56,501 bases of DNA, taken from NCBI GenBank assembly GCA_977020255.1, contig CDROCS010001491.1, forward strand, positions 441,500 through 498,000. The letters are read 5' to 3'. Shown here in pieces: positions 1-56,480 of this stretch. This DNA comes from Obrimoposthia wandeli. Its lineage: Eukaryota. Each line of letters begins with the position of its first letter. The first letter of the stretch is position 1. Position numbers and translations under genes: made by a program. Below the pieces are notes generated by a model that saw nothing but the letters and a program-made list of their open reading frames with translations, searched no databases and was not told the origin of the DNA.

Positions 1-1000
1 ACTAGGAAATTGATAAACTACAAGTATAAGTGAAGGAATGTTAAGTTAAAACCTAGCAATATGCAGCTACACACGTATTTTAATAATAAAATTGATTTCT
101 ATTATCATAAAGGATTGATTCAAAAGGAACAGTTATATCAGAAGATGGTTTAGAGAGACTGTCAGTTAAACAAGGAGATCATAAGAACTAAGTTAGCACT
201 AGCTATTTCAAATCCATACATGGCAGCACCACTATTACCTCTAGGCGAAGGAGTATTTGCTAAAACCATGGGATAAGTACTGTATAGTTATAAGTACAAA
301 AACGTAGTGGTACAGTTGAGAAAAACAGAGCGATGCACAAGCGAATTGCCAGTGACGTATAATTTAAAATCACTCTTTGTAGAACCTATCACGAGAATGA
401 TACTTCCTAAAGACACTCCAACAAAAGAAATCAGCTGCTCCAATTATGGCACCTGAATATCAGATGACGAGTGATCTATGGATAACTTTACCTGACCGTA
501 AGCGAACAGCGACTCCAGAGATAATAAAAATGAGGACACTTAAAGAAAAAATGAACTTAAAAGCGGTAAGGAAAATTGAAAATGCAGGTTTATACAATGA
601 GAAAGATCTAAAAACGGCCTGGAACGAAATAATGTTTCCAGTAATAAGGACCAGAGTACTTATGGAAATTGTACATCGTGCATTACCACCAGGAGCTAGA
701 TATGCGAATTTTGATATGATATTGTTGCCAAATCATTTCAAAGAAGCAGCACATCAGACACTTAGGAAAATGTGGGGAAAATTCCTTGTTTTAGGACAAT
801 TATTTTCAATTATCATATAGGTTTTTATATTATAATTAAATTAGTACAGGTAATTATAGCTCAGGTGTTGTCTACATATAGTTTGTACAGGATAACCGGA
901 ATCACTTGGCAACTTATAATTGGATGTTTTCCATTTTTAGCGAAATATCTAATGTATCATCATCACGAGAATGAGTTACGAGCCATCAAGAAGGAGCAAC
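1..1000 (+). pseudogene. Chuvirus/Monjiviricetes-like fusion glycoprotein (env-like), C-terminal half with TM region; disrupted
   Basis: Frame +1 reads DCQLNKEIIRTKLALAISNPYMAAPLL..GEGVFAKTMG*VLYSY...VQLRKTERCTSELPVTY..KSLFVEPITRMI, frameshifts into ORF 446 (MAPEYQM...GLYNEKDL...IMFP...WGKFLVLG) and ORF 772 (hydrophobic FYIIIKLVQVIIAQV...GITWQLIIGCF). Pattern recognised as chuvirus-type glycoprotein; stops at 31, 151, 274. Confidence 0.8.
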
Positions 1001-2929: not shown

Positions 2930-3030
2930 TGGAGCACAGCGACCAGCAGCTATCATTAGAGTCAATAATTTGAAAATAAAAGCCTTAATTTACACGGGCG
3001 CAGTAACATCGATAGTGAGTGAAGAAGCAC
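2930..3030 (+). pseudogene. Second aspartic protease remnant fused by deletion to the RT-RNase H connection
   Basis: IRVNNLKIKALI[Y]TGAVTSIVSEE (D to Y in DTG) followed directly by AQQALEDLKVRLIKAP. Confidence 0.75.
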
Positions 3031-4680
3031 AACAAGCGTTGGAAGATCTAAAGGTAAGACTGATAAAAGCACCGATATTAGCGTTTCCGGATATAAATCG
3101 ACAATTCATACTAATGACAGATGCAAATAACTATGCTGTAGAAGCAGTATCAGGACAAGAGGATAAGTAAGGAAGAAAACACGTCATCGCATATGCAAGT
3201 ATATGGTTAAATAGAGTAGAAAGAGGATACTCTGTTATCGAAAAGGAATGTCTAGCCATAGTATATTCATGTAGACAGTACAGACACTACTTGCTAGGAC
3301 AAAAAGTATTCCTGTATACAGATCACAAACCACTACAGTTCTTGTATAAACATAGAGACGAGATGAGCCAATTAAACCGATGGTTTCTGAAATTAGCTGA
3401 ATTTAATCTAGAAATCTGATATAGAACCGGAAAGTCGAATGGCAACGCAGATTGTTTGTCGAGATTTGCCAATGTAGATGAAAAAGGAAACATTATTCAA
3501 TAAGAAGGTCAAGGTGAAGTCAATGACCAGGGAGGAGAAGCAAATATACAGACAAATTTGCTGAAAACAGTAAAATAGACAAATAAATCATCAAGGAACA
3601 GAAGGAAGATAAAGAATTGAGTCTAATCAAAGAACTGTTAGTGAAAGAAGATCTAAATGATGAAATGACGAGAAAATACTCGATAAAAGAAGGAATATTG
3701 TATATTGTCAACAAAGTCGGAAAGATAGTAGTAGTAATTCCGAAGTCATTGAGAACGGCAGTGATGATCCAGTATCACGATGGAACACTGGGAGGACATC
3801 TGTCAGGACGAAAGACAATATCGAGAATTAAAGAGAAATACCATTGGGATGGTATGGAAGACGAGATAAAACAACAATTCAAAACCAGAATGCTGAAACA
3901 ATAGCACAAATCCTGGTAGAAGAGATAATATTTCGATATGGAGTACCTAGAAAATTATTAATTGATCAAGGAAAGAATTTCACTGGAGAAGTAATAAAAG
4001 CAGTATCGAAGATATTCGGAATTATGAAGTTACAAACTTCACCATATCACCCACAAACTGACGGTCTAGTAGAAAGGTTTAATAAAACTATCTGTATGAT
4101 GATACAATCTTATTGCTCCGATAAGCAAGATGATTGGGATAAGTATTTACCTTCATATTTATATGCTTACAGGAATTCAGTTCGAGAGGTGACGGGCCAC
4201 ACACCATTATATCTGATGTATCTCAGACAGAACAATATGCCAATGGATCTGGAGTGGACCCAACCAATATCTCAGTACCTAGAAACTGAAGAATACATTG
4301 TCGTCATGAAAGAAAGACTACAAGATTCTTGGACTAATACAGGGTTGAAATTGAAATTCAATCAAGAAAATTACAAGGAACAATACGACAAGAAAGCAAA
4401 ACCACACGAATTTAGAGTCGGAGATCAAGTGATGCTATTCTATCTAGTAATCAAACCAATTATATCGTTTAAACTTCATAGACCATACAAAGGACCATAC
4501 AAGGTGATACAGACAACCTCAACAAATTTGAAAGTAATCAACGAGGAGATCAGGAACAAAGAACCGATGATAGTACATGCGAACCGATGTAAACTGGTAC
4601 CGAATAAAGATAATGCGTCACGATATGAGCTACAATCACAGAAATTGAAGCCGAATACCAATACAATTAAACTTACATGA
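3030..4680 (+). pseudogene. Pol remnant: RNase H, integrase Zn-binding region and truncated integrase core
   Basis: Motifs as above; RT core (YxDD) absent; integrase lacks the segment between EDEIKQ and IQNQNAETIAQ. Confidence 0.9.
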
Positions 4681-5204
4681 ATGGTAAGTGATCGAAACTA
4701 CATAAATACGATGACAAATGGTAACGATGAAAAACCAATGATAATTGGTATGCTCAGAATGAAGCACCAAGTGGAAAGAGAAGTAATCCGACACATCGCA
4801 CCACAAGAGATATTAGAAGAAGACGAAGAGATCATAGTCGTTTTCGAAAAACAAAACCGACAGATGTAGCGAAAGAAGTTATTTTGAAAGATGCATTAAC
4901 AAAGAAAATTCTGTGTGAACTTAGAGTGTCATATTTCGATGGAAATACACTAGTCGTGGAACTTCATCAAAACTCCAATGTGTTTATGTCTGAGAAAGTG
5001 ATCATAGAAATCTCACTGACACAATGGCAGAACTATGACAGTACAGAAATAGGACTAGTCGGTCAGGAAGAAAAAGAATCAGCTGGTGGTCATATACTTC
5101 ATGGTACACTGAAAAGACTCAGACAAGAATACCATGATCTGATAATGGTATTACGTAATCCTATGAATATTAAAATAAATTATATTAAATGTAAACATAC
5201 CTAA
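4681..5204 (+). pseudogene. Unassigned accessory ORF(s) downstream of integrase
   Basis: Two near-contiguous ORFs with the same A-rich composition as the element; no recognisable motif. Confidence 0.35.
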
Positions 5205-10269: not shown

Positions 10270-12285
10270 ATGTCAAGGCATTTGTCTGTACATCGAGAAT
10301 TTGTAAAAAAAGAAACATACACTATCAACTTTTCATTAAATTTTATGAGCAAAGTTGGTTGTATGATTCCTGAAGCAGAGACTGCAGCCAGTAAAGTATG
10401 CGAAAACGAAATATTGATGCAGAGCTGTCGGCGCTTGATGTATCCAAGGTCAAACCTAAAGCTTCATTACATCTACTCTTTCATTTTATTATGGTTTATA
10501 TTATCATAAAAGTCTCCTTATTAAAAAGTATAATGCCATAGCTACTGTTGCTACTCTTGGGAAATTTATTTTATACTCCAAACTTTAGAGAAATATTTAT
10601 CTTTAACTGCATATGCTGAATTCTCTGCAGTTTTTGAGCGGCTCTTTAAAATAATTAATGACATATTTAAATGGCCAATTACACAGTCAGTGTTCCCAGT
10701 TTCGATTAATGATAAGGAGATTTTTCAATATAATTTGTGAAAACTTTCACAGATTTACAAAATACAACATAAATCAACCCATAACTGCATTCGAGAGTGC
10801 ACGTCTTCAAGACTCTAATGAGGTACTTACATTTTGGGATTGTAATTGTCAAAATCTTGTTGAGTCTATGCTTTTTTATATGAAGTTAGACATTTATTTA
10901 TTGGCTGATTTGTTTGAGTTTTTTCCTGTAAAATCTTTAGCAGAAGATGGGCTAGATCCCATGCATTTTTTTAATTTACTTGGTCTTTCATGGGCAACGG
11001 CAATAAAAACTCCTTATATTAATGTTGAGTTATTGCAAGATCCTATGATGTATCAAATGTATGATTATGATATACGCGGTGGAATGACTTTTGTCAACAA
11101 ACATCATGTTGTCAAAAATCAATCCATGGAGATTCTGTACATCAACATAATTAATTTGTATAGGTGGGCGCTTACTCAACCTCTACCACATGCCAACTTT
11201 AAGTGGATGTGTGATGTGGAAGAGTTGAATAAGTTGATGACAGATTTGCCTACTGTTGATACAGTTTCGTCAAATGTCGGCTATTTGGTTGACGTCGATT
11301 TAACAATCCCTCCTAATGTGCATGATTAATTGTATGATCTTCCAGTGCACCTATTCATCAATGTCCACCTAATTTAAAGGTTAAAAAATTATTGTTAACA
11401 CATGAAGACAGGTTGAATTACGTGTTGCATTGGCGGCTTCTTCAATTCTATATAAAGTAAGGAACAAAATTTACTCGAATTAATCGTGCTATAAGCTTTA
11501 GTCAAAACCTTTTGTTTAAAGACTATATTTAGAAAAATTCTAGAAAACGTTATTTGGCCTGTAGCAATTCAATCGACATTTAAAAATCTTTGAAAAATCT
11601 GTAAAGGACTTGCGGAAACGTATTTGTTTACGATTTTGCTATAATGAGTGCAAACTAATAACATATATTACCAAGTACAACTTCAAGCATATTTACCATT
11701 GCAGATTACTTGGTAAATTTTTTTTATTAGGAAAACAGAGTATTGTCACGATCGATTGAGTTATGTAAATCAAACTGTATTAGGTATTTCAAACCCTATA
11801 TTGTATGGGCTCCAATATATTGAATTATATAAATATCGCAATGAATTCAACTGTGAATTCAAACACTGACTCTTTCTTTTTACAATCTAGAAATGTTAGT
11901 TTACAATATCTGTTATTTCTGAAAATGTTTAGGGATAACTTACTTGATACCCATAAATATCCTGTTAATCATCATTTACACTGTAGGGTCAGATTTTGTA
12001 TGATGACTGTATTTTCCTACGCCTTTAATGCTACAGTTTACATACATCTAATAATACATATTCAATGAGAGCAAAGGGTGTGGGAAGAAACAATCTCACC
12101 ATGAGGCCTACCGGAAAGTGTATGATACTGTATGTAATGAAAGCGTTGAGCAAACTAAATTTATTTTAAGACCCAATCAACAGTATTTCCATAAGTCAAC
12201 AAAAATTGTTGTGAGTAGTTATGACGACAAACGCTGTTGGGTAGAAAAGAACGCTGGTCTGGCTTATGGACATTTCCGAATTTAA
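10270..12285 (+). pseudogene. Protein-primed DNA polymerase B (pPolB), decayed
   Basis: YMKLDIYLLADLFE...GLSW...IRGGMTFVNKHH...INLYRWALTQPLP...GYLVDVDL; C-terminal RAKGV...SSYDDKRCWVEKN..LAYGHF. Confidence 0.92.
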
Positions 12286-13330: not shown

Positions 13331-13397
13331 TTTTTTTAAAATGATGTTAGGATTAGGATTTTAAAAATTTTCAAAGAAATAATTAATTGTTATATAA

Positions 13398-14896
13398 TGT
13401 AATAAATTCTTGAAAGCAAGGTTGAAAATGAAATAAATTTTAAATGGAATTATAAATTAAATAATAAAATTAAGAATTATTTTGGGACCTTGAAAGTTCA
13501 TGTATAGTGTGAGATGTGTATAAAAGTTTAGGGCCCGGGAAATTACAGGCATAAAATGTCAGAAAATACATTTTCAAAGAAAAAGCCAAGAAGATAAATC
13601 AAGAAGAAATTATCCAGTGGTCAACAGAAGAAAATCAAAAGAAAAGAAAATAACAGCCTGGTGGGAAAGAAGCAGCTGTTGATCGAGAAGCACTTACCTG
13701 GAGAGACGATCGAGACAGACATCGATTAACTCTGAGAAGAAGCCAGCCGGCATCCATTTAGCACAGTAAGGGCACTTAGCCTAATTGAATTACTTGATTT
13801 ATAATTTAGGAACTTATATAAAACAGAATTCAAGAGTCATCACACACAAAATTTCTCGAAAAATAATTCTCGGAAAATTCTCTGGAAATTCAAAAATTGA
13901 GAAACTAGCAGACTCCGAAAATCAATTGAACGAGAATAAAAGAAAAATCACCAAGCAGAAACTACCAACGAACGCAAGAAGCCGGAGGTGATTAATTTTC
14001 AGAAACAGAAGGAGATTAATCGGTTAACAAAACCCAGGTAGGAAATCAATCTCCATCGATCAACAGAGCACGATGAACTCAACGGAACCAGCAGTCGAAC
14101 TCAGTGAACCGCCGGACTAGTCGTGTGATCTCGAAGAGAGGCTTCTCGAAAAGAGATCACGGTAAGTTCAGAGTGTGAGCGTGTTGTTGAAGGTTATCAA
14201 AAGATAACGAATTTGAAATAAGGTCATTGGAGAAACAATAATTTAATATAAATTGCAAGTGTCCATATTTGAATTAAAGTTGTCCATATTTTTGAATTGA
14301 AATAATTTGATAAAATCGTCTATATTTTGGAACTGAAATAATCTGATAAAATCGTTTATATTTTTGACTTGAAATAATTTTATAAAATAGTCTATATTTT
14401 ATTTGATAACGTTAAAAGAGTTAACGTTCAGTTAAATTGCCCACATTTTGTACGATAAATCATTAAAAGAATTTAAAGCTTAATTTGAATTTGATAAGAC
14501 AAATTAAAATCGATACGTAAGACATCCCCATTTGTGCGAAGTTGTGAAGAGAAATTAGGACTAGTTGTTGTCAATTTTTAGAAACGTAACTTAGTGTGTT
14601 TTAAAGAATACAGTTTCCTATAATTAGTCAGCGTTGTTTGAACAAAACCCCTAGAATCAAACAAGCACCAGATACTCCATACATTACACGACACTAAGGG
14701 AATTTTTCCAGTGCCGTTTACACAGCTCTTCACACATCTCCACAACAACAACAACAAAACCTTCAGAATAGACATTGAGACAGGTAAGCACAATCTAAGT
14801 AGGCCACAAACAACTGCAAGCACTACTTCTATAGAACTCACGTTGGGGGCCTCCATACGAGGATCTATTTAAGAGTTTCAAATAGAAACCCCAACA
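13398..14896 (+). mobile_element. Solo LTR-like element (family A, copy 1) inserted in the Polinton MCP gene
   Basis: TGTAA...CAACA ends; near-TSD ATAA/ATGA; MCP frame resumes on both sides; shares CTTGAAAGCAAGGTT, AAAATCGATACGT and terminal GAAACCCCAACA with the copy at 26327-29302. Strand is arbitrary (purine-rich strand). Confidence 0.75.
14298..14400 (+). repeat. Short tandem repeat (~36 bp x3) inside the LTR
   Basis: TGAAATAATTTGATAAAATCGTCTATATTTTG repeated with variation. Confidence 0.8.
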
Positions 14897-17510: not shown

Positions 17511-19459
17511 TTATATTAAAAATTACTCAATAGAGATAAATAAAAAACTTATAATTTGAAATAATAATATCATAGCCTACATTGAAATATACTTTTGTTA
17601 AATGAATAGTATTATAAATAAATGAGTTAGATGATTAGAAACTTAAATTTTGCGTTTCATTTTAACATTTTTTGTCATTTTGGAAAGTCAAATTAAGATT
17701 AAAATTTTAAAAATTAATGATAATTTTTTAAAAATTTTAAATTAATAGGTACAGTTTAACATTTTAACTTTAATATATTATTTAACTAAATCTTAACAAA
17801 ACATATATAATTCATAATTTTAAATGAATTTTTAAATTTATAACAAAGTTTTTTTTTAAATTAAGAACTTATCATTTTCACAAGAAACATGATTTGATGA
17901 ATGCCTATGATTTCTAAATGTATATTAATAGTTGAAGAAAAAAATTTAATTAATTTTTATTATTAGCATATTGTTTGGAAAGATTAATTTAAGCACTATT
18001 TTAAAATTAAAGAACTAAATACGTTAAAGTATTTTCGAAATATTCTTTTAAGATTTGTTTTTTAAAATCAGTCAATTTCTGATCTTTTTAAAAATTGAAT
18101 AAACAATATTTCAGTTATAAAGACAATATTAATAATTTATTTTTATTAAATCAATCTTCATAAATGCTAATATTTTTTATAGAATTTCTTTTTGAAAACT
18201 AATTTTATCCTTATTTTTATTTATAAAATTATCAACTATTTATTTTTTTAAATGTATTATGGTTATATTAGAATCAAAATGGGAATTCTAAAGAAATAAT
18301 TGTAAATTGATACAGATATATATTATAAATTCAATTTCATATAAATTGATTACTTTAAATTTTATAGTTTTTTCTTTATAATTCCTACTAAAAAAATGTT
18401 TTTTTTAATATAAATTTAATAAATTCATATTTATTTAAATTTTAGTAAAATTATAATAGAATAAAGATTTTTTTGAAACGGGAATTCAAAAAATAAAATA
18501 AATAATAAAGTGCCTTCAATTTAAATGACAAAGAAATGATACAAAACGTCAGGAAATATATTTTTAGTCATTTTAAAACCTAGTCAGTGATATATTGTTC
18601 AAAGTTACCGTTATGAAAGTAAAATATGTATTATTTAAAACAGAATCAGAAAATTAGAGTGATACGTAGGAATTTTTATGAAAAAAATGTAATTTTTTTG
18701 ATAAAGTTGATCAAAAGTGTCGGTACTTATTTAGAATTCTCCAACTTTTAATTAATATTATTATAATAAAAATATCATTTTAATCATATGAAATATTTTA
18801 AAATTTGTCTATATTATACTATTAAAATTTTTATTTATCTTTCAAAATTTAAATTTTCTTGAAGTTAGCACTTTTAAGCCAGTTGATGTATATAAGTTTA
18901 GGTTGGCTTTTTTATATATTCAGATAAATTCATTTAAATTGCATCTAAATAAAAAAATTCGTCATACAATTTTAAAATCATATGAATTTTAATTACTTAA
19001 TAAAATTGAGAATTGATTCTGAATAAAAACCAAAATGACCGATTACCGTTTAATCATTGCTTTTCAATTTCTTGTTCAACATGTATATTAAATAAATAAA
19101 ACGAATATGTTTTTTAAAATGGTAAAAATTTATTAAAAAATATCTGATTTTTTTAAAAATGTAAATAATTAACACAATATTACTTTGAGATTTATTTGAG
19201 GGCACTGTGAAATTATAGGATCACGTTTCTTTAAAGCATATAGAGTTGCCACTTTTTATAGAATATCAATAAATAAACATTCACAACGAGTCAAACAAAA
19301 ATAAAACTAACTTTAAAAAAATATTATGAAAATTTGAATTATTTAAAAACCCATATGAACATAATGTGTAATTTAAATCGTAAGGCTATTTTAAATATAT
19401 TCTTTAAAAAAGATTTTAAGATACCAACCTAATAAAAATCTAAGTCAGGCTAGAGTAAA

Positions 19460-20968
19460 ATGTCAAATGTAAACAATTCCATGCTATTTTCCTTATCGTC
19501 CGAAGTAAATGGCATTGACAAGTGTGCAAATGATATCGACAATGTATTTCCAATTAGAATAAAGTCAGAACTTAAAGCATATAAGAAATACCAAAATAAG
19601 TTGAAGTTTAAAAGTCATAGATGTTCATATAATTTGTCTAACATACCGATTGATAATTTGTGGTTAGAAGTCCAGACAGCTAAGTTTCAAAAAACCCAAA
19701 AAAATAATCAGGCTGGGTTTGTAAATGTATTCAACAATCTTAATAATTATACCTCGGAAGCTCAATTATTTTTATTACCACTGATATACTTTAAATTTTC
19801 GTATGAGACTTTAGAGTATAATGAAATCAGAACAGAGTTTTTCCCTATAATATCTGATTGTACCGAAAAATATTACGTGTTTACTGAGCATTCTTTCCTG
19901 TCCAGATTGGAATCTAATATCAAAAATGTTAATTCTAATCTGGTGTATGAAATTCAAACCAAAATAGCCCTTATCCAGATTCCGAGTTGTTTCCACACAT
20001 ACTCGTATCCCAAATATATCAGAGATACCATATTCAAAAAGAAAAGGTTGATTACTAACCGTAATTTTACTCCTCCGATGAATTCTAATGCCTGCCTCTC
20101 TTATGAATCTCCGGAAACTGACAAGTCTTCAAATAAGGTCTGCAGCCTTTTCAATGCCGGCTCTATATCTTCATCGATGGGCTCAGACATTGATAAGATC
20201 CAGTTTGGTGCCGTGTTTGCCAACCAAAACAATATCCAAAATCCGGAGCTGTTGAATTCATTGCCAAAGCTCTGGAACCAGAATCTTTTGATATCAATTG
20301 ACTACATTCTTCAAGCATCTGTTATTCCAAAATCGTGGATTATTCTCTTTCAGTTTTCGGACTATTATGTAGATGTCATCATACAATCATTGCTTCGCGT
20401 TTTCATTTTAGAGTCAAACTCGTTCTGTAAAGTCAACCGAAAAACCAAGAAACGGAATATTCGCAGTTCAAGCTATAACATAATTCTCCGGAATTCTCTA
20501 CGAAATCTCTTCAGACAGGTTCAATCAAGCATCATGGCGTCAACTTTAAAGGTGGCTATCGATGATTTCTTTGAAGAGAATTGTTTGAAAGGGCATATCT
20601 TCTCAAAACATGGTGTGTGCAGGAAGAAATTAACTGAGAAAACATTCGGAAGAAAGGAACTGTTGACTAAACATTCCACTGACTTAGACCGCAGATTGAA
20701 ATTAAAGAGGGACTTTCAGAACAGTGGTATTAAGAATCGACGATTGACGAAGTACAGCTCTGCGTTTCAGTATGCAAAAGAAAGAGGCAAGTGCAACTCT
20801 CAAACTGTTCTAAAAGGAATCGAAAGGGCGTCAGAGCAAGATCTGAATTCAAAGAATCGGAACACGTTAGCCTCGAAATTCAGAATGGAAGGTGATGTCA
20901 CCAATCATTTGACACAGAAGCTGCGCAAAAAAGCTGTTAGTTTGTGTACTTTCTTTTTGACTTTTTAG
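19460..20968 (+). CDS. Hypothetical protein (502 aa), no recognised domain
   Basis: Longest non-repetitive intact ORF, AAAATG start context; a possible terminal intron from GTTAGT (~20936) to TTTGTAG (~21014) would end it ...KKA|IFSM*. Confidence 0.6.
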   Translation: MSNVNNSMLFSLSSEVNGIDKCANDIDNVFPIRIKSELKAYKKYQNKLKFKSHRCSYNLSNIPIDNLWLEVQTAKFQKTQKNNQAGFVNVFNNLNNYTSEAQLFLLPLIYFKFSYETLEYNEIRTEFFPIISDCTEKYYVFTEHSFLSRLESNIKNVNSNLVYEIQTKIALIQIPSCFHTYSYPKYIRDTIFKKKRLITNRNFTPPMNSNACLSYESPETDKSSNKVCSLFNAGSISSSMGSDIDKIQFGAVFANQNNIQNPELLNSLPKLWNQNLLISIDYILQASVIPKSWIILFQFSDYYVDVIIQSLLRVFILESNSFCKVNRKTKKRNIRSSSYNIILRNSLRNLFRQVQSSIMASTLKVAIDDFFEENCLKGHIFSKHGVCRKKLTEKTFGRKELLTKHSTDLDRRLKLKRDFQNSGIKNRRLTKYSSAFQYAKERGKCNSQTVLKGIERASEQDLNSKNRNTLASKFRMEGDVTNHLTQKLRKKAVSLCTFFLTF

Positions 20969-26326: not shown

Positions 26327-29302
26327 TGTTGGGGTTTCTATACGAAACTTGTACAGATCCTCTTATGTGCGGAGGGCCCCAACGTGAGTTCGAATAGAAG
26401 CAGGTCTTAAAGTTGGTCGTGGCCTACTTAGTGTTATGGTTGCCTATCTCTATTTCTTATCTGAAGGTGTTTGGTTTGACGTCTCTTAATCTGAAGAGTT
26501 TTAAAAACAACGTGTTCTAATGTAGGAAATTGTTTATTGGTAGCACACTAAACTGAACACAACAATACGTTTATGTACGTATTCTCTAAAAAGTATAATA
26601 AAAATTCCTAAGACTTCTGTAAGTCTCTACAACAAGTGGGGATGAACCACGTATCGATTTTACGGTTATGTTTGTTTTAGTCACTAGAGTCTTTACTCTA
26701 AAAATAGGGATTGATTTTAGAGAGCTGTTGCTCTAAAATTTGAGTAGCCTAAAGAGCTGAAGCTCTAAAACAGAGAATGAATTTAGGGAGCTTGTTGCTC
26801 TAAACTGTGCTGATTTGAATTTTAGCTTCAATATTGATGTTCACTTAAGTTTAGATTCCCTTACGAGACAATAGGTATACTTTATCAAAATTCCTGAAAT
26901 CCTTTTTTAAAACAATCGATTTACTATATCGAGATTAATTTCGTTTTCCAATATTTCCGTTTACTTTATTTAAATTTCGAAATTCAAAATATCCTACGAT
27001 TTCAAAATTCAATTATCTTATTATTTCTTTCACGACAACAGATTATTTTATTCGAAATATCTTATGATTTCAAAATTCAATTATCTTATTATTTCTTTCA
27101 CGACAACAGATTACTTTATTCAAAATATCTTACGATTTCAAAATTCAAATATCTTATTATTTCAATTTGTCTTCACGACAACATATTACTTTATTCAAAA
27201 TATCTTATCTTATTATTTCAATTTGTCTTCACGACAACAGATTACTTTATTCAAAATATCTTATGATCTCACAATTCAATTATCTTATTATTTCAATTTG
27301 TCTTCACGACAACAGATTACTTTATTCAAAATATCTTATGATCTCAAAATTCAATTATCTTATTATTTCGATTTGTCTTCACGACAACAGATTACTTATT
27401 TCAAAATATATTACGATTTCAAAATTCCAATATCTTATTATTTCAAAATGTCTTCACGACAACAGATTACTTTATTCAAAATATCTTATGATCTCAAAAT
27501 TCAAATATCTTATTATTTCAATTTGTCTTCACGACAACAGATTACTTTATTCAAAATATCTTATGATCTCAAAATTCAAATATCTTATTATTTCAATTTG
27601 TCTTCACGACAACAGATTACTTTATTCAAAATATCTTATGATCTCAAAATTCAAATCTTATTATTTCTTTCATTATTTCAAAATTTGTCTTCACGACAAC
27701 AGATTACTTTATTCAAAATATCTTATCTTATTATTTCAATTTGTCTTCATTACTCAAAATATCTTATGATTAAAATTCTTATTATTTCAATTTGTCTTCA
27801 CGACAACAGATTACTTTATTCAAAATATCTTATGATCTCAAAATTCAATTATCTTATTATTTCTTTCACGACAACAGATTACTTTATTCAAAATATCTTA
27901 CGATTTCAAAATTCAAATATCTTATTATTTCAATTTGTCTTCACGACAACAGATTACTTTATTCAAAATATCTTATCTTATTATTTCAATTTGTCTTCAC
28001 GACAACAGATTACTTTATTCAAAATATCTTATGATCTCAAAATTCAATTATCTTATTATTTCAATTTGTCTTCACGACAACAGATTACTTTATTCAAAAT
28101 ATCTTATGATCTCAAAATTCAATTATCTTATTATTTCTTTCACGACAACAGATTACTTTATTCAAAATATCTTACGATTTCAAAATTCCAATATCTTATT
28201 ATTTCAAAATGTCTTCACGACAACAGATTACTTTATTCAAAATATCTTATGATCTCAAAATTCAATTATCTTATTATTTCAATTTGTCTTCACGACAACA
28301 GATTACTTTATTCAAAATATCTTATGATCTCAAAATTCAATTATCTTATTATTTCAATTTGTCTTCACGACAACAGATTACTTTATTCAAAATATCTTAT
28401 GATCTCAAAATTCAATTATCTTATTATTTCGATTCTTCTGGCTCACCTCCCAATCTGCAGATAATTTCTGGCTCGTTCGGTGCCTGGTTCCGACGCTTTT
28501 TTGTCTCCTCTCGGTACTTGATCTCGGAACAGCGACTTTCTGTCCGCTGAATTGTGGTTTACGCCTTGGATAGTTGGCGTGCCTCGTTTCTGTTCTGTAC
28601 GTTTGTTTTAATGATTTCTTCTCTAACTATTTTCTTACCTCTGCTGATCGGCTTGGCGTCCGGTCTCGATCAGAAGTGAGCTTGTTTCTGGAACTATTGA
28701 ATTCCACGAGAATTTTCTTGTTACTGAATTCCAATCGGTTGGGATAGGCTGAGAATTCTGCTTTCTCTCGATCTGGAATTAGTCTCTTTGAAATATTGAT
28801 TTTTTGGGCTAATTTCCGTAGACTATATAGTCTATTTCTCTGACTCTCTTCGGTGACTTCCAATCAACGACTTATATAGTCGATATAAATCAGCTGCCTA
28901 CTGAGTTCTGGCTTTTCTAATGATTTCCCGGTGACGTGATCTGTCACTCAGTCTTCTGGTTTGCTGCGATAAGTATTTATTTCAAATAAATTAATTAAAT
29001 TTTCTCACTTCAGGAACAGCTGTCGGGACGTGGCTGCTGACGTCGACTGAATTCCGGTTTGCACTTCTTCTTTTCCTTTTTTCCAATTTTCCAATTAGTC
29101 TTCTTTTCTTGCAATAACTTGCAGAGCTATATCTTTTTTGGGGCCCTTTTGTTAGATATAAATTTCTATACATACCTACACATTTCACACGACCTTCGTG
29201 GTTCTCTAACATTTAATCTTATTTAACCCAATAATTTTAATTTTGATTTTTAAAATTTATTAAATTAAATTCTAACCTTGCTTTCAAGGATTTTCATTTT
29301 CA
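26327..29302 (-). mobile_element. Solo LTR-like element (family A, copy 2) with expanded tandem array, inserted in ORF-Y
   Basis: TG...CA ends, near-TSD ATAT/CTAT; homologous blocks with 13398-14896; the interrupted frame resumes (NFSAFIKAD...|FKRIYNYSEEEFPKS) and matches the uninterrupted copy at ~21700-21950. Confidence 0.8.
26990..28432. repeat. Tandem array of ~20 units, 75-bp consensus with 68- and 56-bp deletion variants
   Basis: ATTCAATTATCTTATTATTTCAATTTGTCTTCACGACAACAGATTACTTTATTCAAAATATCTTATGATCTCAAA. Confidence 0.97.
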
Positions 29303-31520: not shown

Positions 31521-32420
31521 AAATGGAAAGACTTTTAATTTCTGTGACAAGGTTAGCGATGTCTTATATGACGGAGCACTTGTCACCGTTTTTCCTAAAA
31601 TGTTTGGTGTTAATTGTAGTCTTAATGATCGTTTTATGAATATCAATACAAATTTACTTAATTGTTTTAAAGTTATTAAACTTTTTCAAGATGCCCAAAT
31701 ATAAAACTTAGTTGAGAAAATTAACTCAATATATGGAACCCGAAAATTATATTTTAATCGTTTAGGTACATAATTTAACCTTGATGATAGGTTAGGTGAT
31801 GTCCTGTTTGATAGCGCCTTAATTAGTGGTTCTCTACCACCACCATCATGTAAACTTTATAACTATTGTACTAATAATTGTCATGATTTAAATTGTCATG
31901 ATGTAATGAAAAAAAATTATAAGTTTAAAATCGGGTACATATGTCCCTCATGTGATATATTGTTCACAAACATAAAATATTTAGATTTTTATTCAAATCA
32001 TAAAAATCACTTAACTTACTTTAATACCAAGAAATCTAATTATAAACGTAAATCATCATCATCATCATCACTTCCAAGTAATAAAGTTATAAAACTAGAA
32101 ACAATTATTAATATAATACTAGTTGATAATCTGGATAATAGTTTTAATTTCAAAATAGTTGATAGTTGGTAACGTCCTAATAGTCTAACATTTCCTCCTA
32201 ATTTTGATTTCACTACATTTTTAAATGATGATGATGAATTAGATAAGTATTAAAATGAATCTCTATATTTTAATGATTTACTTTATACACATGAAAAGCC
32301 ATTTGTTGATGAATTATATAATGATTTTGTAGCAACTGTAGACTTTGAAGCAATATCGAAAACTCAAATATGTAGTGTACTTCAAGATAATCTTATTTTG
32401 ATACTACATCTAACCAGAAT

Positions 32421-34135
32421 ATGCTAAAACTGGTTATTAATAATGATATGAAAAATGATTTATTAAATAAAATTAATGCATTTGGGCCTTGTAAAATCCA
32501 ATTTGGTATTAAAGCTCAATTTGTAAACATAGAAAACCAATTTAAAACATGGCATATTAGTTGTAAGGCTGCAGTTTTCGATGATGAGTTTATTGTTATT
32601 AGAACAGACAAGTTAAATAATTGTATTGAAAAATACTCGGAATTGAGTAGTGGTTGGTCAATCTATAAAATATTACAAATTTCTTTTAAATTAACTAAAT
32701 TATCCAGTGTTTCGGGTTCTTCATATATACCATCACCACATAAATTAATAAATAAAATGACATTAATTAATGTAAAAAAACAGCGATAATAAATGTTTAC
32801 TCTATGCTATGCTATCCTTTAAAATATAATGAAGTTCAAAATAGAGATCGAACATGTTCTTATGATCAATATTGAAATGATTTTAAATGTCAGCCAAGTC
32901 CTATGCCCTTAGCCTCAATACCTCAATTTGAATGTGATAACAAAATAGCAGTTACAGTTGTTAAGTATTCTGAAATTAAAAGTAAATACCTGATTAAAGA
33001 TGTGGTGAAAAATCCTGATGTTAGTATAATTTACCGAACAAAACTACGGGAATGTAATCAAATTGTTAATTTACCTTTGTTAGAAAACCGTAACACTTAT
33101 CATTATTGTGGTGTTCCTAATTTAAATAGATTATTTAAATGTCATAGTTATGGTTTATGCCTTTACTGGTGTCCGAAATGTCTTTTTGGTTTTCAAACTG
33201 TGGCTGCTTATGATAAACATAGAATCCATTGTAATTTTAATACTAAATCTTTATTCACTATGCTGGATAATAAATATTGTGAATTCACAGATTGGTTAAA
33301 GTCAGTTCAACCTCCTTTTGTAGTTTACGCTGATTTTGAAAGTATTTTAGAACCTGATGTGACTGTTAAACATATACATACTCCCATTTCAGTTGGAATG
33401 TTGTTGAAAAATAATGTTACTGACACAATATAATACTTTTCGTATTTCGGTTTAGATTGTGCTACCAACTTTATTGATAAATTAACGGAAATTCTTAATG
33501 AAATTGTTGCACATTTTTGGAGAAATAATGTGAATGCACGTCTTAAAATGACAAATGAAAATCAAGTAGCTTTTCAAGCGAGTCGCACATGTTACCTTTG
33601 TTATAAAATCCCTAGAAATTTAGTACGTGATCATGATCATATTTCAGGTGCATTCTTGGGTGCAGCATGTAATAAATGTAATTTATCTCGTAGATTCGGT
33701 AAGAGACCTATGTTACCAGTACTTTTTCACAACTTAATGGGTTATGATATTCATCATATTTTAAAATTTGCAAAATTAAAAGAAAAAAGTTATTCAATCA
33801 TACTCAAATCTAGTGAAAGATTCATGGCTCTCAAAATAGAATTATCAACTGGAACATTGAAATTTTTAGATTCATATCTTTTTACAACAACTAGTCTTGA
33901 AATATTGGTTAGTTATCTTTCAAGTTCACCGTATACAACAAGATATTTTAGTACTGATTTGATATCTAGTAAAGGTGTTTTTCCCTACGAATATATTTCC
34001 AGTGAATCTAAGTTGTATGAAGATAGATTACCTCCAAAATGTGAATTTCTTGATAGTGTTACAGATGATAAATATAATTCAGCTCACACAATGTGGAAAT
34101 AACTAAGTTGCACTAATATTAAAGACTATATGATG
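32421..34135 (+). pseudogene. pPolB N-terminal/exonuclease region with endonuclease-VII-like insert
   Basis: SGW..., CPKCLFGF, PFVVYADFESIL, CYLCY...VRDHDHISGAFLGAACNKCNL, VLFHNLMGYDIH, KFLDSYLF, KGVFPYEYI. Confidence 0.93.
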
Positions 34136-34199
34136 GAATATAAACTGAATATATACAAAATACATTTTGTTTACAAGTCAATTTATTGTAAACGATAGT

Positions 34200-35040
34200 A
34201 AACTATCAATTACTTTTTATGTAATGAAATATTACAATAATAACTTATCTTATTGCAGTTCAAATGCAGAAACTGGCTCAAGGCATGCTTCATGATATGA
34301 TGCATATCGTAGCCCCGCAAGCTGTGAAAAATAATCGGGAGACTACGACTCAACCGCCTACTGAGGTTACACTTGAAATGAGCCACACCGAGAAACTCCC
34401 CTTTCATATGATCATGATTGCGCTTCTTGTTCGCAACTCGCTTCTTTCCCAAATAGCAGATTGGAGTTGAGTTGAAACTAACAATCTGTACTGGCGTAAG
34501 TGGGCACATAGCTTCGGCGGCATGGCTTCCATACCTAGGGCACACAATCTCCTTCACTAGCTGCTTTAGATTCTTCAAAAACTCAACAACACAAGACTCA
34601 CCAGTAAAAGCAGAGTACTCGTGCTGGAAAGTAGTGGAATCCACTGAAACAGGAGAGAACACCATACCCGCCGCAATTGGAAGGCGGATTTGATGGTGAA
34701 TCCCATGCGGTGGTAGTACTGCTTCGAAGTCGAAGTAGAGGGAAAACGGAGGAGAAATTGTCTAGCTCAAGTCTGAATTCACAGTACTTGTTTATAAGCA
34801 TCTGGTACAGAGTTGTATACTCTGTATTCGAAGTGCAGAGGGACACATGCTTATTGAACGCCTACACTCCGTGGATACATTTGTGATACCACGTACATTG
34901 AATACGAGTTGCAGTCCGTCTGTTCCTATAGTTAAATAACATATTCAACTAAAGTACTACTACGTAGTGGTAAGTGCTATCATTTTCAAGTAAAAGCAAG
35001 TTGACGGGCTTTCCTGCTAGATTAGTGGTTCGGTAGATCA
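34200..35040 (-). pseudogene. pPolB fragment from a different, GC-richer Polinton lineage
   Basis: FTGESCVVEFL...CYLG...RNHDHMKGEFLGVAHFKCNLSRR...IIFHSLRGYDMHHI; markedly higher GC than its flanks. Confidence 0.88.
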
Positions 35041-50560: not shown

Positions 50561-52539
50561 TTCATTGGGAGCCATTAGCTAAAAACTGAAAAATGCTTTG
50601 TTATGAACATATCAGTATATCCGTTCTTTAAATGAAGATTGAATATTTTATTTATTTTGATTATTTTTGAGTTATAATAAAAAATACTATTTATTTTAAA
50701 AGTTTCAGGAAAATCTAAAATACACATAACACTTTCTTAAATTGCATTTATTGAACATGACCAAATAGCATTTTAATCATATGTACTTATTTCTCCTTAA
50801 TATCAGATACATCATGTTAAACCAATTACAATTGAAACACCATTAAAAAAAACGTATTCAATAAAAATTGTTTTCAATAAAAATTGTTTGCTTTTATTGA
50901 TGTTAACAATTTGAATAATAAAAATATTTATGTGGGAATTTCGAGTCTTGGCTTGTATATTTTGAATTTTGTAAAAATCTTTCGTATTCTATGATTTTTT
51001 AAATTTAAATCAAGTCATTTTGCATGAATGCTTTCTTTTAAAGTATTGGAAAATAGTGAGGAAATTTATCTTTATATTATGTTTTATTTCAAAAAAATTA
51101 TTTTACCCAAAGTAGTTTGTATTGTAAGTTTTACAGACAAACTAAATAATATGTTTTCTTTTAATTTATGAAAATATTAAGAACAATCTTTGAATTCCTT
51201 CACAAAAAAATAATCCCAAGTTAAATTCCAATATTTTTTCTTTTAGTTTTAGAGTTTAATAATATTAAATTGATCGCGAATCTATGCTTAATATTTGCTA
51301 AAAATGACCATTTAAAAATTTAATAAAATTTTATTAAAGATTTAGTTTAGATTTTGTAATATTTTAAATTATATGCTTAGGTTATTTAAAAAAATGAGTT
51401 TAAATAGATTAAATATAATGTTTGCATATAAATTAAATAATTTTAAGTTATAATATTTCTTAAATAAAATATATATTAAAAAAGTAATTCGATTTTCAAA
51501 ATAATTCAAAATAAATAATAATACTACATTTAGTTTTATTTATATGACAGCATTAATATAAATGAGCTATTAATATAATCTATGTGCATAATTATAGAAA
51601 ACAATTCTTTGAAATTGTAAATAATTTGATCTTATATTTCAAAATGTCTTATCAATATTTAGCTATATTTAAAAGTGTTGTTTTTTTATATTCAGAAGTA
51701 CCCAGTTGGGATTATTTCCTTGTTATCTGTAAAATCATTTTAAATAGTAAACACCAAACTTCTAACATCTGATTAAAAACAAAGCATTTGTCTTTAGTTT
51801 AACAATTAAAGGAATAGTACACATTATACACATTCGAATTTCCAATACTTTCAGCCAGCTAAAACTGCATGATAATTTTATTAACAAATTTAATAGAAGT
51901 ACACTGTAGTCATGAAAATTATTAGCTAACAAAAAAGTAAACCGTTGAAAATTAATTAAATGCTGAGTAACAATAATAAAAAAATTGAATTGGTCAATAA
52001 GGGTCGAAATATTTTAAATACATTTTAGTGCTTTATCCTTTGTGTATATCGACTATAAATAGTTGTATTGCTGTTGATGGTGACATATTCAATTGTTTTT
52101 TTTACCGTAAGTATAAGAATTTATGAAATAAAGTTGGTATGATAATGAATTATGATGAATTATCTGATTGCAATAATAAGTGTAATAATTGTAAAGAACA
52201 ATGTAATAATTCTAATGAAGAAAAACAGTAAAATAACATTTGTGAAAGAGATGAAGAATCTGTATTGCAAAGTTAACAAATAAGTTGTGTTATGTTTATT
52301 TTATTTTTAAATGAACATTAGTATATTGATTTGATCGTTTAAAACATGTATTTTTCTCATTACTCTGGAATTTATGCTTTACTATGAAAAATCGCTCATA
52401 TCATAGTTTGGTTTATTTGCTGTTTTTTGTCACAAATTCGACACAAATTGCCAGCATGTAGCCCAATCCCTATAGTATTGGCTTAACTACATAATCCATT
52501 AATATTGAGGTGGCTCAGAAGTTGTGCTGGTGCACATAC

Positions 52540-52725
52540 CCGTCTGTCCATTTCGGCGTTGCCTTGTTCAGCCTGAAGTGCCTTGCGCATTCCAAATGCG
52601 ACACTGGACTCGTAGAGAGATTGGTAAGCAGCTATAGTCATACGAATCTCGTCCCTCACGCGCAACAACAATAGACCACGTTCCGCACAGTTAATTGTCA
52701 CCTGTCGGATCAGCTCATCGAATAC
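52540..52725 (-). CDS. DNALI1: DNALI1/p28 internal coding exon (upstream exons not found in window)
   Basis: VFDELIRQVTINCAERGLLLLRVRDEIRMTIAAYQSLYESSVAFGMRKALQAEQGNAEMDRR|GTATGT; donor certain, acceptor (ATCAG| at 52726) inferred. Confidence 0.95.
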
Positions 52726-55700
52726 CTGATATAATAGGAACACTGATTGATACTCTACCCAAGGATTATAGAATTCAGGAAAACACTGCATAGGACCATA
52801 AACGAATATCTTAACCCTGTGCTGATGGAGTGGGTTCAAAAACGAAAAAGTAGCACTATGCATTATTGAAGTTTCTGTAAATTACGTACCAATGCAGTTT
52901 CTGATTATGCATATTACTGTATTCCAAATTTTCCTGACTTTGTGATTGAACTCTACCCTAGAATTCAAGTAGTTATTCATCAATAGACAAATATTCTGAA
53001 GCATTGACAAATATGGTAATGCATTTCATTAAAAAAAAGTTCTTAATAGTGCTAAAGTGCTATATCGTTTCTCAAATGATCGTCAAAATTGTAGGACTGC
53101 TTTTACTAATGTACTATACATATAAGCCACGAATAGTGCTTGTCCTTCTCTAAGTGACCATAAATCTCCCATAACCGGTAGTGAGACAGAAACAATTCTT
53201 CCGTGATAAACCGAAAAAGCTTCCATTTCGACTCGATAGGCGACAATCCATTTCTCTTTGAAATTATGGTTTCTGTTTAATAAAATTACTGTATACCAAG
53301 CATAGTTTTCTTTTACTTAAACACAATCATAAAAGATGAATTCACAAAAAAAATAAGAATTGCTTCGATTTACTTATCTAGAATCAGCCCGAGTTTTTTT
53401 ATCTTTAAAGGATTGCTTTTGCAAATTTTGGGGCAATCTCGGTGCCCTGATTGCTTGGAGACACATTAAAAGGTAAGGCACTCTATGAAATATAGCTCAC
53501 AGATAATTTGCAGATTGATAAAATTTATTTAAATATTTTTATTAACTCTTCAAAATGATCAATTATTATTTGAAATAAATTGCATTCATTTTGTATATCG
53601 TATAATAATAAAATAAATCACCACTAAAGATAATTTGATAAAAATGCATTAAAACCATTATATAATTGAAAGTCATTCATAATTTAACCATTTTCAGGTT
53701 TTATTTATATTTTGTTTTATTTAAATTCATGGTTTATAATTTCAATCAAATTTAGACAGACTTTTAATTGTCAGTTACATAATAGAATATTTTGGTTCGC
53801 TGAAGCCTTTCCGTAAATCAATTAAAAACGATGTCTGCAAATTATAGCGAAGATTAAAATGAATTGTGTTAAAATGAGAAGATAGAAACCGTTTCTTATA
53901 TTTTAGTTTTCACAAGATTTAACCTTGATTGAACTTTCTGATTATTAAACAAAAAGTTATAATTAAATTTCATTATTAAAAAAATCAAAAAATCAAATAT
54001 TTAAAGTTTAACTGACTAGAATTTTAATTTTTTTAGGTTTTTCTTATAATACGTTATAAAACTCTTTTCTTTAAAGTTTCTTAAAATTTGTAGAACAAAG
54101 TGATAAACCTCAACATATTTAATTATACTATGCCACCTCATGTGATCACTTTTTCTAACATTTTTCTAAAGAATCTTTCACATTGTTTAACGTATTTTCA
54201 CTTTCTGTAATTGTATAATAATGTGATACTAGGTCGTGTTAAATGTTTGAAATAGAAAGTGTTAACCAATTTCGAGGAAGTGTTTGCCGATAAAGTATAT
54301 TTCTAATTTATTAAGTGCATGTTGCTAATTCTTTTTTTAAAGATTAAATAGCTGCATAAAATATAAGTTAATAATTTATAATAATTTGGACTTACCTAAC
54401 CGAAAACATGTTTAATTTTGATAAAATAATTTGGTTTGTATTTTATGTCTCAGTTTGATAAAGTTATTTCAAAAATACCCACAGTAAAATTCACGTACTC
54501 AAAAGCATTTTAAAATTATTACGAAAAACATACATTCCATATTTTATAATACGAATATTTTTAATAAGCATTAAATTTCAGATAATTGTAAAACAATTTT
54601 TTTATTATTATTAAAATGTTATATTGATTATAAGCATAATTAATACTAAAATATCTCAAGTTATTGTAAAATTAGAAATATTATTAATTGATCTGATGAA
54701 AACGTTGGTTGAATATGACCGAGTTTAATATACTCAAACACTTGTCGTTGCATTGGTATTAAAAATTCATGAAACTTGGTTCTATCGAAACTTCCAATTT
54801 ACATTTTCTTGTAACAAAACGATCCATATAAAATACATTTAAAACTGCCTAAACTAACCACAATAATTAAATATCAGTAAAATAACTAAAGATTTTTAAA
54901 AGTAAGTTTAAAGAATTTATTATCTGCATTACATATAATTTCTTTGCTATATCTTTATTAGTGTTTTACATGTAAATTATATAAATGATCAAATACAGTG
55001 TTATTTTTATCGAGCTTATCTAATCTCGATATTATTTTTGCAATTTTTCTCGATTCTAGGTGAGGGTACATGCATCCGTGCACTCTAAATGGAGTAATGG
55101 TCTAATAAAGCCCGCTTGAAAGTATTTATATGTGGCCAAATTATTCTTCTTTCAAAGCCTGGGAATAGAAAAGTCAATTCAATATATTCCATATCTAGAC
55201 TAGCAGTGAATGGTTAAAGCGGTTTAAGAAAAACAGAATCTGAGATTATTAAAGATATATTGAGCGTGAATCTTTGTATATTTAAACATTATGTCAACTA
55301 CATTTTATTTCAAGAATTTCAATATTTGCATAGAAAATATTAATTGTCTAAAATGAAGACTTACTCTATATATTACTTATTAAGTATTTGTACTAAGTTT
55401 GCTTAGTTCCTGCAGATGAAACATATATATGCACAGGGAAATGAGCAAAGAGGAGAGTATATGTGTAACTAAACATGAGAATACTTCTTTGGCGATAATA
55501 TTTCAAACGAATTCAGCTCGATTCTTCTCATACGTCTACTCAAATAAAACTACTACTGACTTGTAGCCAAATATTAAATCGACTCAATAATTAATTTGCT
55601 CTTCATTCAAGGTCATTCATTCATGCACAAGACAAACCATTACAATTATAAAACTCTTAAATCGCAAACGACCATATAAAATAAGAAATCGTAATAAAAT

Positions 55701-55796
55701 TAGAAACATAAACAATACTATATTTTAAATAATTTACAGCAACTTACTTTTAATAACATTTTTTGCAATGAGGTACGGATAACCCTGGCGATTCAG

Positions 55797-56480
55797 TTGT
55801 TTAATAAAAATCAAATGGACCAATGTTTGTTTTCAGTCGTAAATTATGAAGGGGAATTAGTTTATCTTGATTTTATGAATTATATAGGCCAGGCAGTATT
55901 AGATTTAAGCAAACTTCGTATGTATGATCTACAATATGAGCAGTTGGAGAAATATCGAGCTCAATTTAACTGTGACTTTAGAATTATAGCAGGTGACACT
56001 GATAGTTTTTTCTTGAAGTGCAATAATGTAAATGTTCAAGAAACATTGTTACCTGCTATGATTGCTGATGGACTGTTGGATACCTCGAAATTTCCAAAAA
56101 CCCATCCGCTTTATACGACGCTTAATACAGCGATTGGCAAATTTAAAGATTTGAGCAAGGGATTATTTAGCTATAGGCAAGGGATTTTTCTACGTCCAAA
56201 ATCATATAGCTTAGAGACTACAGAAGGTGAATCTCAGATGAAAGCTAAAGGTATTAGTTTCCAGCAGATAAGTATTAGACATTCTAATTACTTGGCCGTC
56301 TATGAGAGTGGTGTTAGCAAGCATTAACACCAATAACGTTTAATTTCGCTAAATCATCAACTTTTTACTAAAAGGTTTAGTAAAATTGCCTTAAGCAGTA
56401 GCGATGATAAACGCAAGTGGGTAGATAAAAATCGATCAGTTGCCTATGGCCACTTTTTATACCCGGACGAAATTGTATAA
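55797..56480 (+). pseudogene. pPolB C-terminal fragment (Polinton)
   Basis: YIGQAVLDLSKLRMY...GDTDSFF...LDTSKFPKTHPLY...IGKFKD...LRPKSYS...KAKGI; after a stop, ALSSSDDKRKWV..VAYGH. Confidence 0.93.

Follow-up and report, generated by a model that had tools for sequence, protein, structure and literature searches.

The window (the whole stretch of DNA analyzed, 56,501 nucleotides) began inside a decayed retroelement on the + strand, the first recognizable part of which was the broken C-terminal half of a gB/chuvirus-type envelope glycoprotein (Env) at 43–981. The Pfam family PF24664 (Monjiviricetes_fusion) matched successive pieces of this region in profile order from 337 to 650, with four of five pieces assigned and three above the cut-off: 154–273 (profile 337–375, E 0.08, below the cut-off), 277–453 (profile 381–428, E 3.5e-9), 401–817 (profile 428–555, E 1e-14), and 766–1278 (profile 554–650, E 2.4e-7). 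The piece at 34–150 had no Pfam match. Translation of positions 1–1300 gave a frame-1 stretch interrupted by two stops upstream of position 277, a frame-2 stretch at 401–817, and a second frame-1 stretch at 766–1278; the reading frame changed near 440 and near 800–820, where a sequence-only reading of the same DNA had placed frameshifts (near 440 and 820). A hydrophobic stretch at ca. 799–855 marked the predicted transmembrane anchor region (799–894), which was split by the second frame change. That reading had described a decayed chuvirus-type ectodomain and transmembrane segment running into a protease with no LTR or gag between them, and the PF24664 matches followed by a PF13650 protease confirmed this description.

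Downstream of Env, a predicted cytoplasmic tail and linker (982–1322, collinear with other copies) led to a retroviral aspartic protease with a DTGS motif (protease 1, ca. 1323–1586; PF13650, E 6e-6). A decayed BIR (inhibitor-of-apoptosis) domain lay at 1838–2100; Pfam did not match it in the window copy, and related copies matched PF00653 with E values between 2e-10 and 1e-9. It was followed by a C3HC4 RING finger (2700–2828; PF13920, E 4e-11) and the start of a second protease (2940–3025), after which a deletion of ca. 1.5 kb had removed the rest of protease 2 and the whole reverse transcriptase (RT). RNase H (RH; 3021–3416; PF17917, E 6.5e-26), an integrase (IN) with H2C2, core, and GPY motif (3587–4677, with an internal deletion of ca. 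200 nt near 3875), and the start of a post-integrase extension (4678–5159) completed the copy, all on the + strand; homology to other copies stopped at 5159, and the phosphatase domains, RING open reading frames, and 3′ LTR carried by other copies were missing. Upstream of the window, locus L031 held a 5′ LTR starting at ca. −4323, a gag with a CCHC knuckle (E 2e-6), and ubiquitin-like and Bcl-2-like regions. The N-terminal half of the glycoprotein was absent, and a (GAT)333 run (L031 8981–9979) stood in its place directly upstream of the window. Window bases 1–42 differed from other copies, in which matches began at 42–61 and in one case at 116. The window copy is dead, truncated, and inert: because its RT is deleted and its Env broken, it cannot be autonomous, and the suggestion of a potentially infectious element did not hold for this copy.

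The GAT run corresponds to the run of Met codons that opens the Env signal, which behaved as a microsatellite across the family, with 333 units in the window copy, 58 in another copy (L015), and at most 17 in the other 28 copies; the 333-unit run may be an assembly artefact. A second fragment of the element’s 5′ part (L032) lay on the same contig (C1491) at ca. 422000–424300, ca. 17–19 kb upstream of the window, and was 73–82% identical. An LTR at window positions 13345–14896 (1,552 bp, TG...CA ends) is a solo LTR of a related family with its own 4-bp ATGA target duplication and is not the 3′ LTR of the decayed copy. Elsewhere in the window were decayed Polinton-like pieces (10655–11329, 32391–34761, and 55704–56327), the second of which contained DNA_pol_B_2 and endonuclease VII matches at 33434–34099; a 504-aa open frame with no Pfam match (19454–20968, + strand); a tandem array of ca. 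75-bp units (26938–28439); and a host-gene exon for an axonemal dynein light chain (52486–52881, − strand; PF10211, E 7e-34).

The element was found to be abundant in the host. A DNA search of the 1.35-Gb genome with window positions 1–1000 returned 4,532 candidates, and all 40 that were scored matched, the 39 others being 89–92% identical. Searching the genome with PF24664 yielded 20,253 candidates, 68 of which were scored; the full profile was present in one piece in 47 of the 68, and 34 of these 47 loci had no stop, with open frames of 747–5,301 aa. Thirteen of the full-profile loci formed a younger sister subfamily, 94–98% alike and 81–83% identical to the window over the Env region.

The junction between Env and pol was examined in 30 copies. 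Of these, 27 had both the transmembrane and the protease 1 anchor; the two anchors shared a frame in 14 and were joined without a stop in seven, and the spacing between them agreed to within 11 nt in 23 of the 27. At the other border, 23 of the 30 copies had both the Bcl-2-like and the Env-start anchor; the frame was kept in 16 of them, and no stop intervened in 12. Several deletions and the microsatellite-filled gap in the window copy might suggest that a separate endogenous viral element had been joined to pol by deletion, as the sequence-only reading had allowed. Because the junction is common to the copies and single open frames run from Gag to RT, this origin is refuted, and we give it practically no chance. 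The junction of Env and protease is native and in frame, and the glycoprotein is part of a Gypsy element in which it lies 5′ of pol, as had been proposed. No gag lies between Env and protease; gag is instead located upstream of Env, at a distance of 2–4 kb.

A copy measured from LTR to LTR on contig C2227 spanned ca. 21.6 kb, the only copy measured in this way. Its LTRs (1.55 kb, TG...CA ends) were flanked by 4-bp AAAT repeats and were 3.6% apart (K2P, over 952 nt). A primer site lay 8 nt after the 5′ LTR in six copies, and that of one copy matched host tRNA-Met over 19 nt including the CCA. The tRNA-Met genes themselves occurred in tandem arrays with a period of ca. 285 bp on contigs C2252 and C2837 (L092). 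The order PR-RT-RH-IN (RT being deleted in the window copy) and the GPY/F integrase motif, along with the TG...CA LTRs, tRNA primer site, and 4-bp target duplication, are those of Ty3/Gypsy elements (Metaviridae). A Ginger/Polinton identity was rejected on the TG...CA LTRs, and a Troyka identity was rejected as Troyka elements encode no env according to the available text of PMC12440569.

Natural copies carried, in one open frame, Gag (CCHC), a ubiquitin-like region, a Bcl-2-like region, a signal-like stretch, the Env ectodomain, the transmembrane segment, protease 1, BIR, RING, protease 2, RT, and RH. A natural frame of 3,145 aa had a CCHC knuckle at 524–538, a ubiquitin match at 833–889 (weak, E 0.04), and PF24664 at 1299–1936 (E 2.5e-97), and continued after Env through protease, BIR, RING, and protease into RT. 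Three further natural frames (2,390, 1,739, and 1,796 aa) contained RH, IN, and two dual-specificity phosphatase (DSPc) matches at E ca. 1e-39, followed by hydrophobic segments. Taken together, the reading frames indicated that the element encodes a single polyprotein, with the order Gag, ubiquitin-like, Bcl-2-like, Env, protease, BIR, RING, protease, RT, RH, IN, and two phosphatase domains, for which a length of ca. 5,500 aa is obtained by arithmetic from two stretches in different copies. Separate RING-H2 frames lay near the 3′ end of the element. The transmembrane segments downstream of IN raised the question of another envelope gene there, but none is claimed, as Pfam matched no fusion protein in this part.

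The accessory domains were assigned with differing strength. The ubiquitin-like region gave weak matches only (E 0.015–0.04). The Bcl-2-like domain, which precedes the Env signal, matched Bcl-xL by profile at E 0.003, and Foldseek returned only Bcl-2 family rows, none below E 0.001; in structural comparison its fold reached Z 12.7 with an rmsd of 2.9 over 132 residues, the top 36 rows all being of the Bcl-2 fold and unrelated rows having Z of 5 or less. The first phosphatase domain, with a complete HCxxGxSR motif, is apparently active, and the second appears degenerate. Among 238 candidates in a search, itself insensitive, for other long polyproteins with the phosphatase region, only two unrelated plant proteins were found. 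Phosphatase cargo in LTR elements was not found in the text of the literature searched, and this cargo may be the new part of the element.

The sequence-only reading had expected a class III fusion fold, and this was borne out in a model of a natural ectodomain from the sister subfamily (533 aa, 101-row alignment, pLDDT 91.6, pTM 0.73), taken from a copy ca. 85% identical to the window copy over the C-terminal part. All rows shown in a comparison with the PDB were herpesvirus gB (best E 5e-12, TM ca. 0.4), and the best rows from a viral structure library were chu-like virus glycoproteins (E 3e-37, TM up to 0.77, ca. 17–21% identity). By sequence, the Env piece had no match in the PDB, and for an Env profile the match to gB was no better than E 0.6. 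The signal region began with several Met codons, the ectodomain cysteines were conserved, the transmembrane segment was moderately hydrophobic (KD 1.98), and no furin-type site was found. The predicted structure identifies Env as a chuvirus/gB-type class III fusion glycoprotein, with the signal, class III ectodomain, and transmembrane segment by which gB-type errantiviruses are recognized.

Homologs of the Env piece were missed by a word-indexed search, and a HMMER search returned 913 matches at E 0.001 or better. The ten best were 35–44% identical; in nine, Env shared its protein with gag, protease, or RT domains, and in one of the ten a weak Bcl-2 match preceded Env. An unrooted FastTree phylogeny was built from 135 of 150 listed matches and the window’s family, 15 being excluded as too short. 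A branch with support of 95 separated all 14 polyprotein rows, together with five fragments that carried no label and one other row, from the one named chuvirus (from a shrew), a wasp locus, and the BEL-linked P0040 (DUF5641). In eight polyproteins for which both Env and RT trees were made, the two well-supported splits were common to both. Two proteins encountered in the search had features of their own: P0151 (4,844 aa) combined Env with up to seven protease-like stretches and ankyrin, and P0008, a retroelement polyprotein, was labelled as a protein from a Flavobacteriaceae MAG and is probably mis-binned.

These results bear on the proposal that a Gypsy lineage independently captured a chuvirus glycoprotein. 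A recent capture of this kind would fit the chu-like structural matches and the Pfam family, Monjiviricetes_fusion; however, viral proteins are far less similar to Env than its ten best relatives are, the polyprotein-embedded Envs group together, the Env tree agrees with the RT tree, and the GAG-ENV-POL layout has already been published. We consider a recent capture very improbable. The agreement of the two trees instead favours Env as an old passenger of the lineage that would have descended together with RT.

The novelty assigned to the position of Env did not stand either, as Burro elements of planarians, with an in-frame env between gag and pol, were described in 2019 (PMC6431247), and gB-type GAG-ENV-POL errantiviruses of the Ty3/gypsy group are described from Platyhelminthes, Nematoda, and Bryozoa in the available text of PMC13524379, the supplement of which has nine rows for Platyhelminthes and ten for Bryozoa. 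Burro/GYPSM1 of dugesiid planarians, as described in the available text of PMC6431247, resembles the window family as a giant LTR element with thousands of copies, one polyprotein of ca. 5,000 aa with Env in frame, a CCHC Gag, a ubiquitin/SUMO-like region, a BCL2-like region directly before Env, a BIR, and an Env matching mononegavirus-type fusion proteins. Burro is larger (>30 kb, as opposed to ca. 21.6 kb) and has two or three CCHC knuckles where the window family has one. Burro1 also carries MATH and ankyrin domains, neither of which was detected by Pfam in the frames scanned here; MATH is likewise absent from ORF1 of the D. tigrina Burro (PMC6431247). A dUTPase-like region lies between protease and RT in Burro (PMC6431247), and the candidate place for it in the window family, a protease–RT linker of ca. 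130 aa, had no PDB sequence match. Two proteases flanking BIR-RING, two phosphatase domains after IN, and 3′ RING-H2 open reading frames were seen in the window family and are unnamed in the available Burro text (PMC6431247). The element is Burro-like, sharing most of the described Burro features in a comparison by description.

The gB-type errantiviruses share with the window family a Ty3/gypsy pol, a class III Env, the GAG-ENV-POL order, high copy number, and probably flatworm hosts, a likeness again by description; accessory domains or a single polyprotein are not described in the available text (PMC13524379). Anakin has the same glycoprotein family as the window Env but is a BEL/Pao element of mosquitoes (available text of PMC7642597), whereas the present family is Gypsy, with RH, IN, and GPY motif of Gypsy type and no BEL-type Pfam matches, and the BEL-linked P0040 stood elsewhere in the Env tree. 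The same source text that describes the errantiviruses reports 114 gypsy elements with an Anakin-type glycoprotein in arthropods (PMC13524379). Chuvirus (Jingchuvirales) glycoproteins and herpesvirus gB have the class III fold and conserved cysteines in common with Env, but are only 17–21% and 9–14% identical to it, respectively, and are free-standing genes rather than parts of a retroelement polyprotein. The literature compared also included PMC10084718, PMC8532177, and PMC13238120.

The host’s multi-copy mitochondrial COX1 had AAA at four positions where all four bacterial COX1 proteins have Asn, AAG at invariant Lys positions, and ATA never opposite Met. Reading AAA as Asn is the flatworm/echinoderm mitochondrial code, which fits rhabditophoran flatworms and also echinoderms. 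The code alone is thus shared with echinoderms, and it is the appearance of the COX1, which we take to be flatworm-like, and the Burro-like element type that make a flatworm host likely. Besides the many host copies, the assembly contained many bacterial COX1 genes, and a 27-kb contig, from prey or a contaminant, carried a single COX1 that follows the ordinary invertebrate code.

When natural copies were compared codon by codon in pairs, the net dN/dS between subfamilies was 0.12 and 0.23 for the two Env halves, 0.15 for protease 1, 0.06 for the ubiquitin-like and 0.07 for the Bcl-2-like region, and, from only three or four old copies, ca. 0 for integrase and 0.16 and 0.11 for the phosphatase domains. 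The dN/dS values are biased, since the sister copies were picked on profile score and their dN is lowered as a result. BIR was less constrained (0.58). The window copy compared with its own subfamily gave ca. 0.5, as expected for decay over an older structure. These values are evidence that the Env, Bcl-2-like, ubiquitin-like, and phosphatase domains were under purifying selection during the spread of the family. In one copy (L028, 778–1590), the N-terminal half of Env was far more diverged, with a dS of 0.98 as against ca. 0.3 for 24 others, and the rest was ca. 90% identical, which suggests that lineages have exchanged the tip of Env.

The window very probably contains the dead remains of one copy of a giant, Burro-like Ty3/Gypsy element that is present in high copy number and has an in-frame gag-env-pol polyprotein, the Env of which likely carried particles between cells. 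Our confidence in the identity of the element is high; real cell-to-cell infection by the family is only somewhat favoured, and the processing and topology given here are inferred. The polyprotein would be threaded through the membrane like those of flaviviruses or alphaviruses. Its internal signal would direct the Env ectodomain co-translationally into the ER lumen, where signal peptidase would detach it from Gag. The transmembrane segment would bring the remaining polyprotein back to the cytosol, and there RT, RH, IN, and the accessory domains would be excised by the two proteases. Capsids could then bud through Env-bearing membrane and use class III fusion to enter a new cell, and the Bcl-2-like, BIR-RING, and phosphatase domains may blunt apoptosis and stress signaling in the producing cell.

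Two other accounts of Env were weighed against this mechanism. Env might be kept for an intracellular role, as polyprotein anchor or in ER budding, without extracellular infection; an in-frame fusion would bind Gag and Pol to the membrane, and the available text of PMC13524379 gives the transmission mechanism of such elements as unknown outside Drosophila. Purifying selection acts on the ectodomain throughout, conserved cysteines and fusion fold included, whereas a mere anchor would need less, and we regard a purely intracellular role as possible but doubtful. The second account has most Env translated from a separate spliced or subgenomic RNA, with the Met run of the signal as its start, and not released by polyprotein processing; we think this rather improbable. 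Several Met codons do open the signal region, but the frame is open across both Env borders (Bcl-2 to Env in 12 of 23 copies and transmembrane segment to protease 1 in seven of 27, without a stop), and distant relatives have the same fusion.

A bolder possibility can be put forward tentatively. The family may be a complex enveloped invertebrate retrovirus whose single 5,500-aa polyprotein unites a capsid with a class III fusogen, a pair of proteases, the replication enzymes, and domains for controlling the host (Bcl-2, IAP-like BIR-RING, dual-specificity phosphatases, and extra RINGs). Its young subfamily, in which long open frames persist, may spread between cells or animals, and its phosphatase cargo would be undescribed in LTR elements; we think this unlikely as a whole. 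The Env-in-polyprotein layout is real but already published, and the window element is a further Burro-like family, for which the confident structure model supports the Burro-type Env as a gB/chuvirus-like class III protein. The tandem phosphatase cargo is the part that deserves specialist attention. If the envelope is functional, the family would be a tractable example of how retroelements move from cell to cell in animals rich in stem cells.
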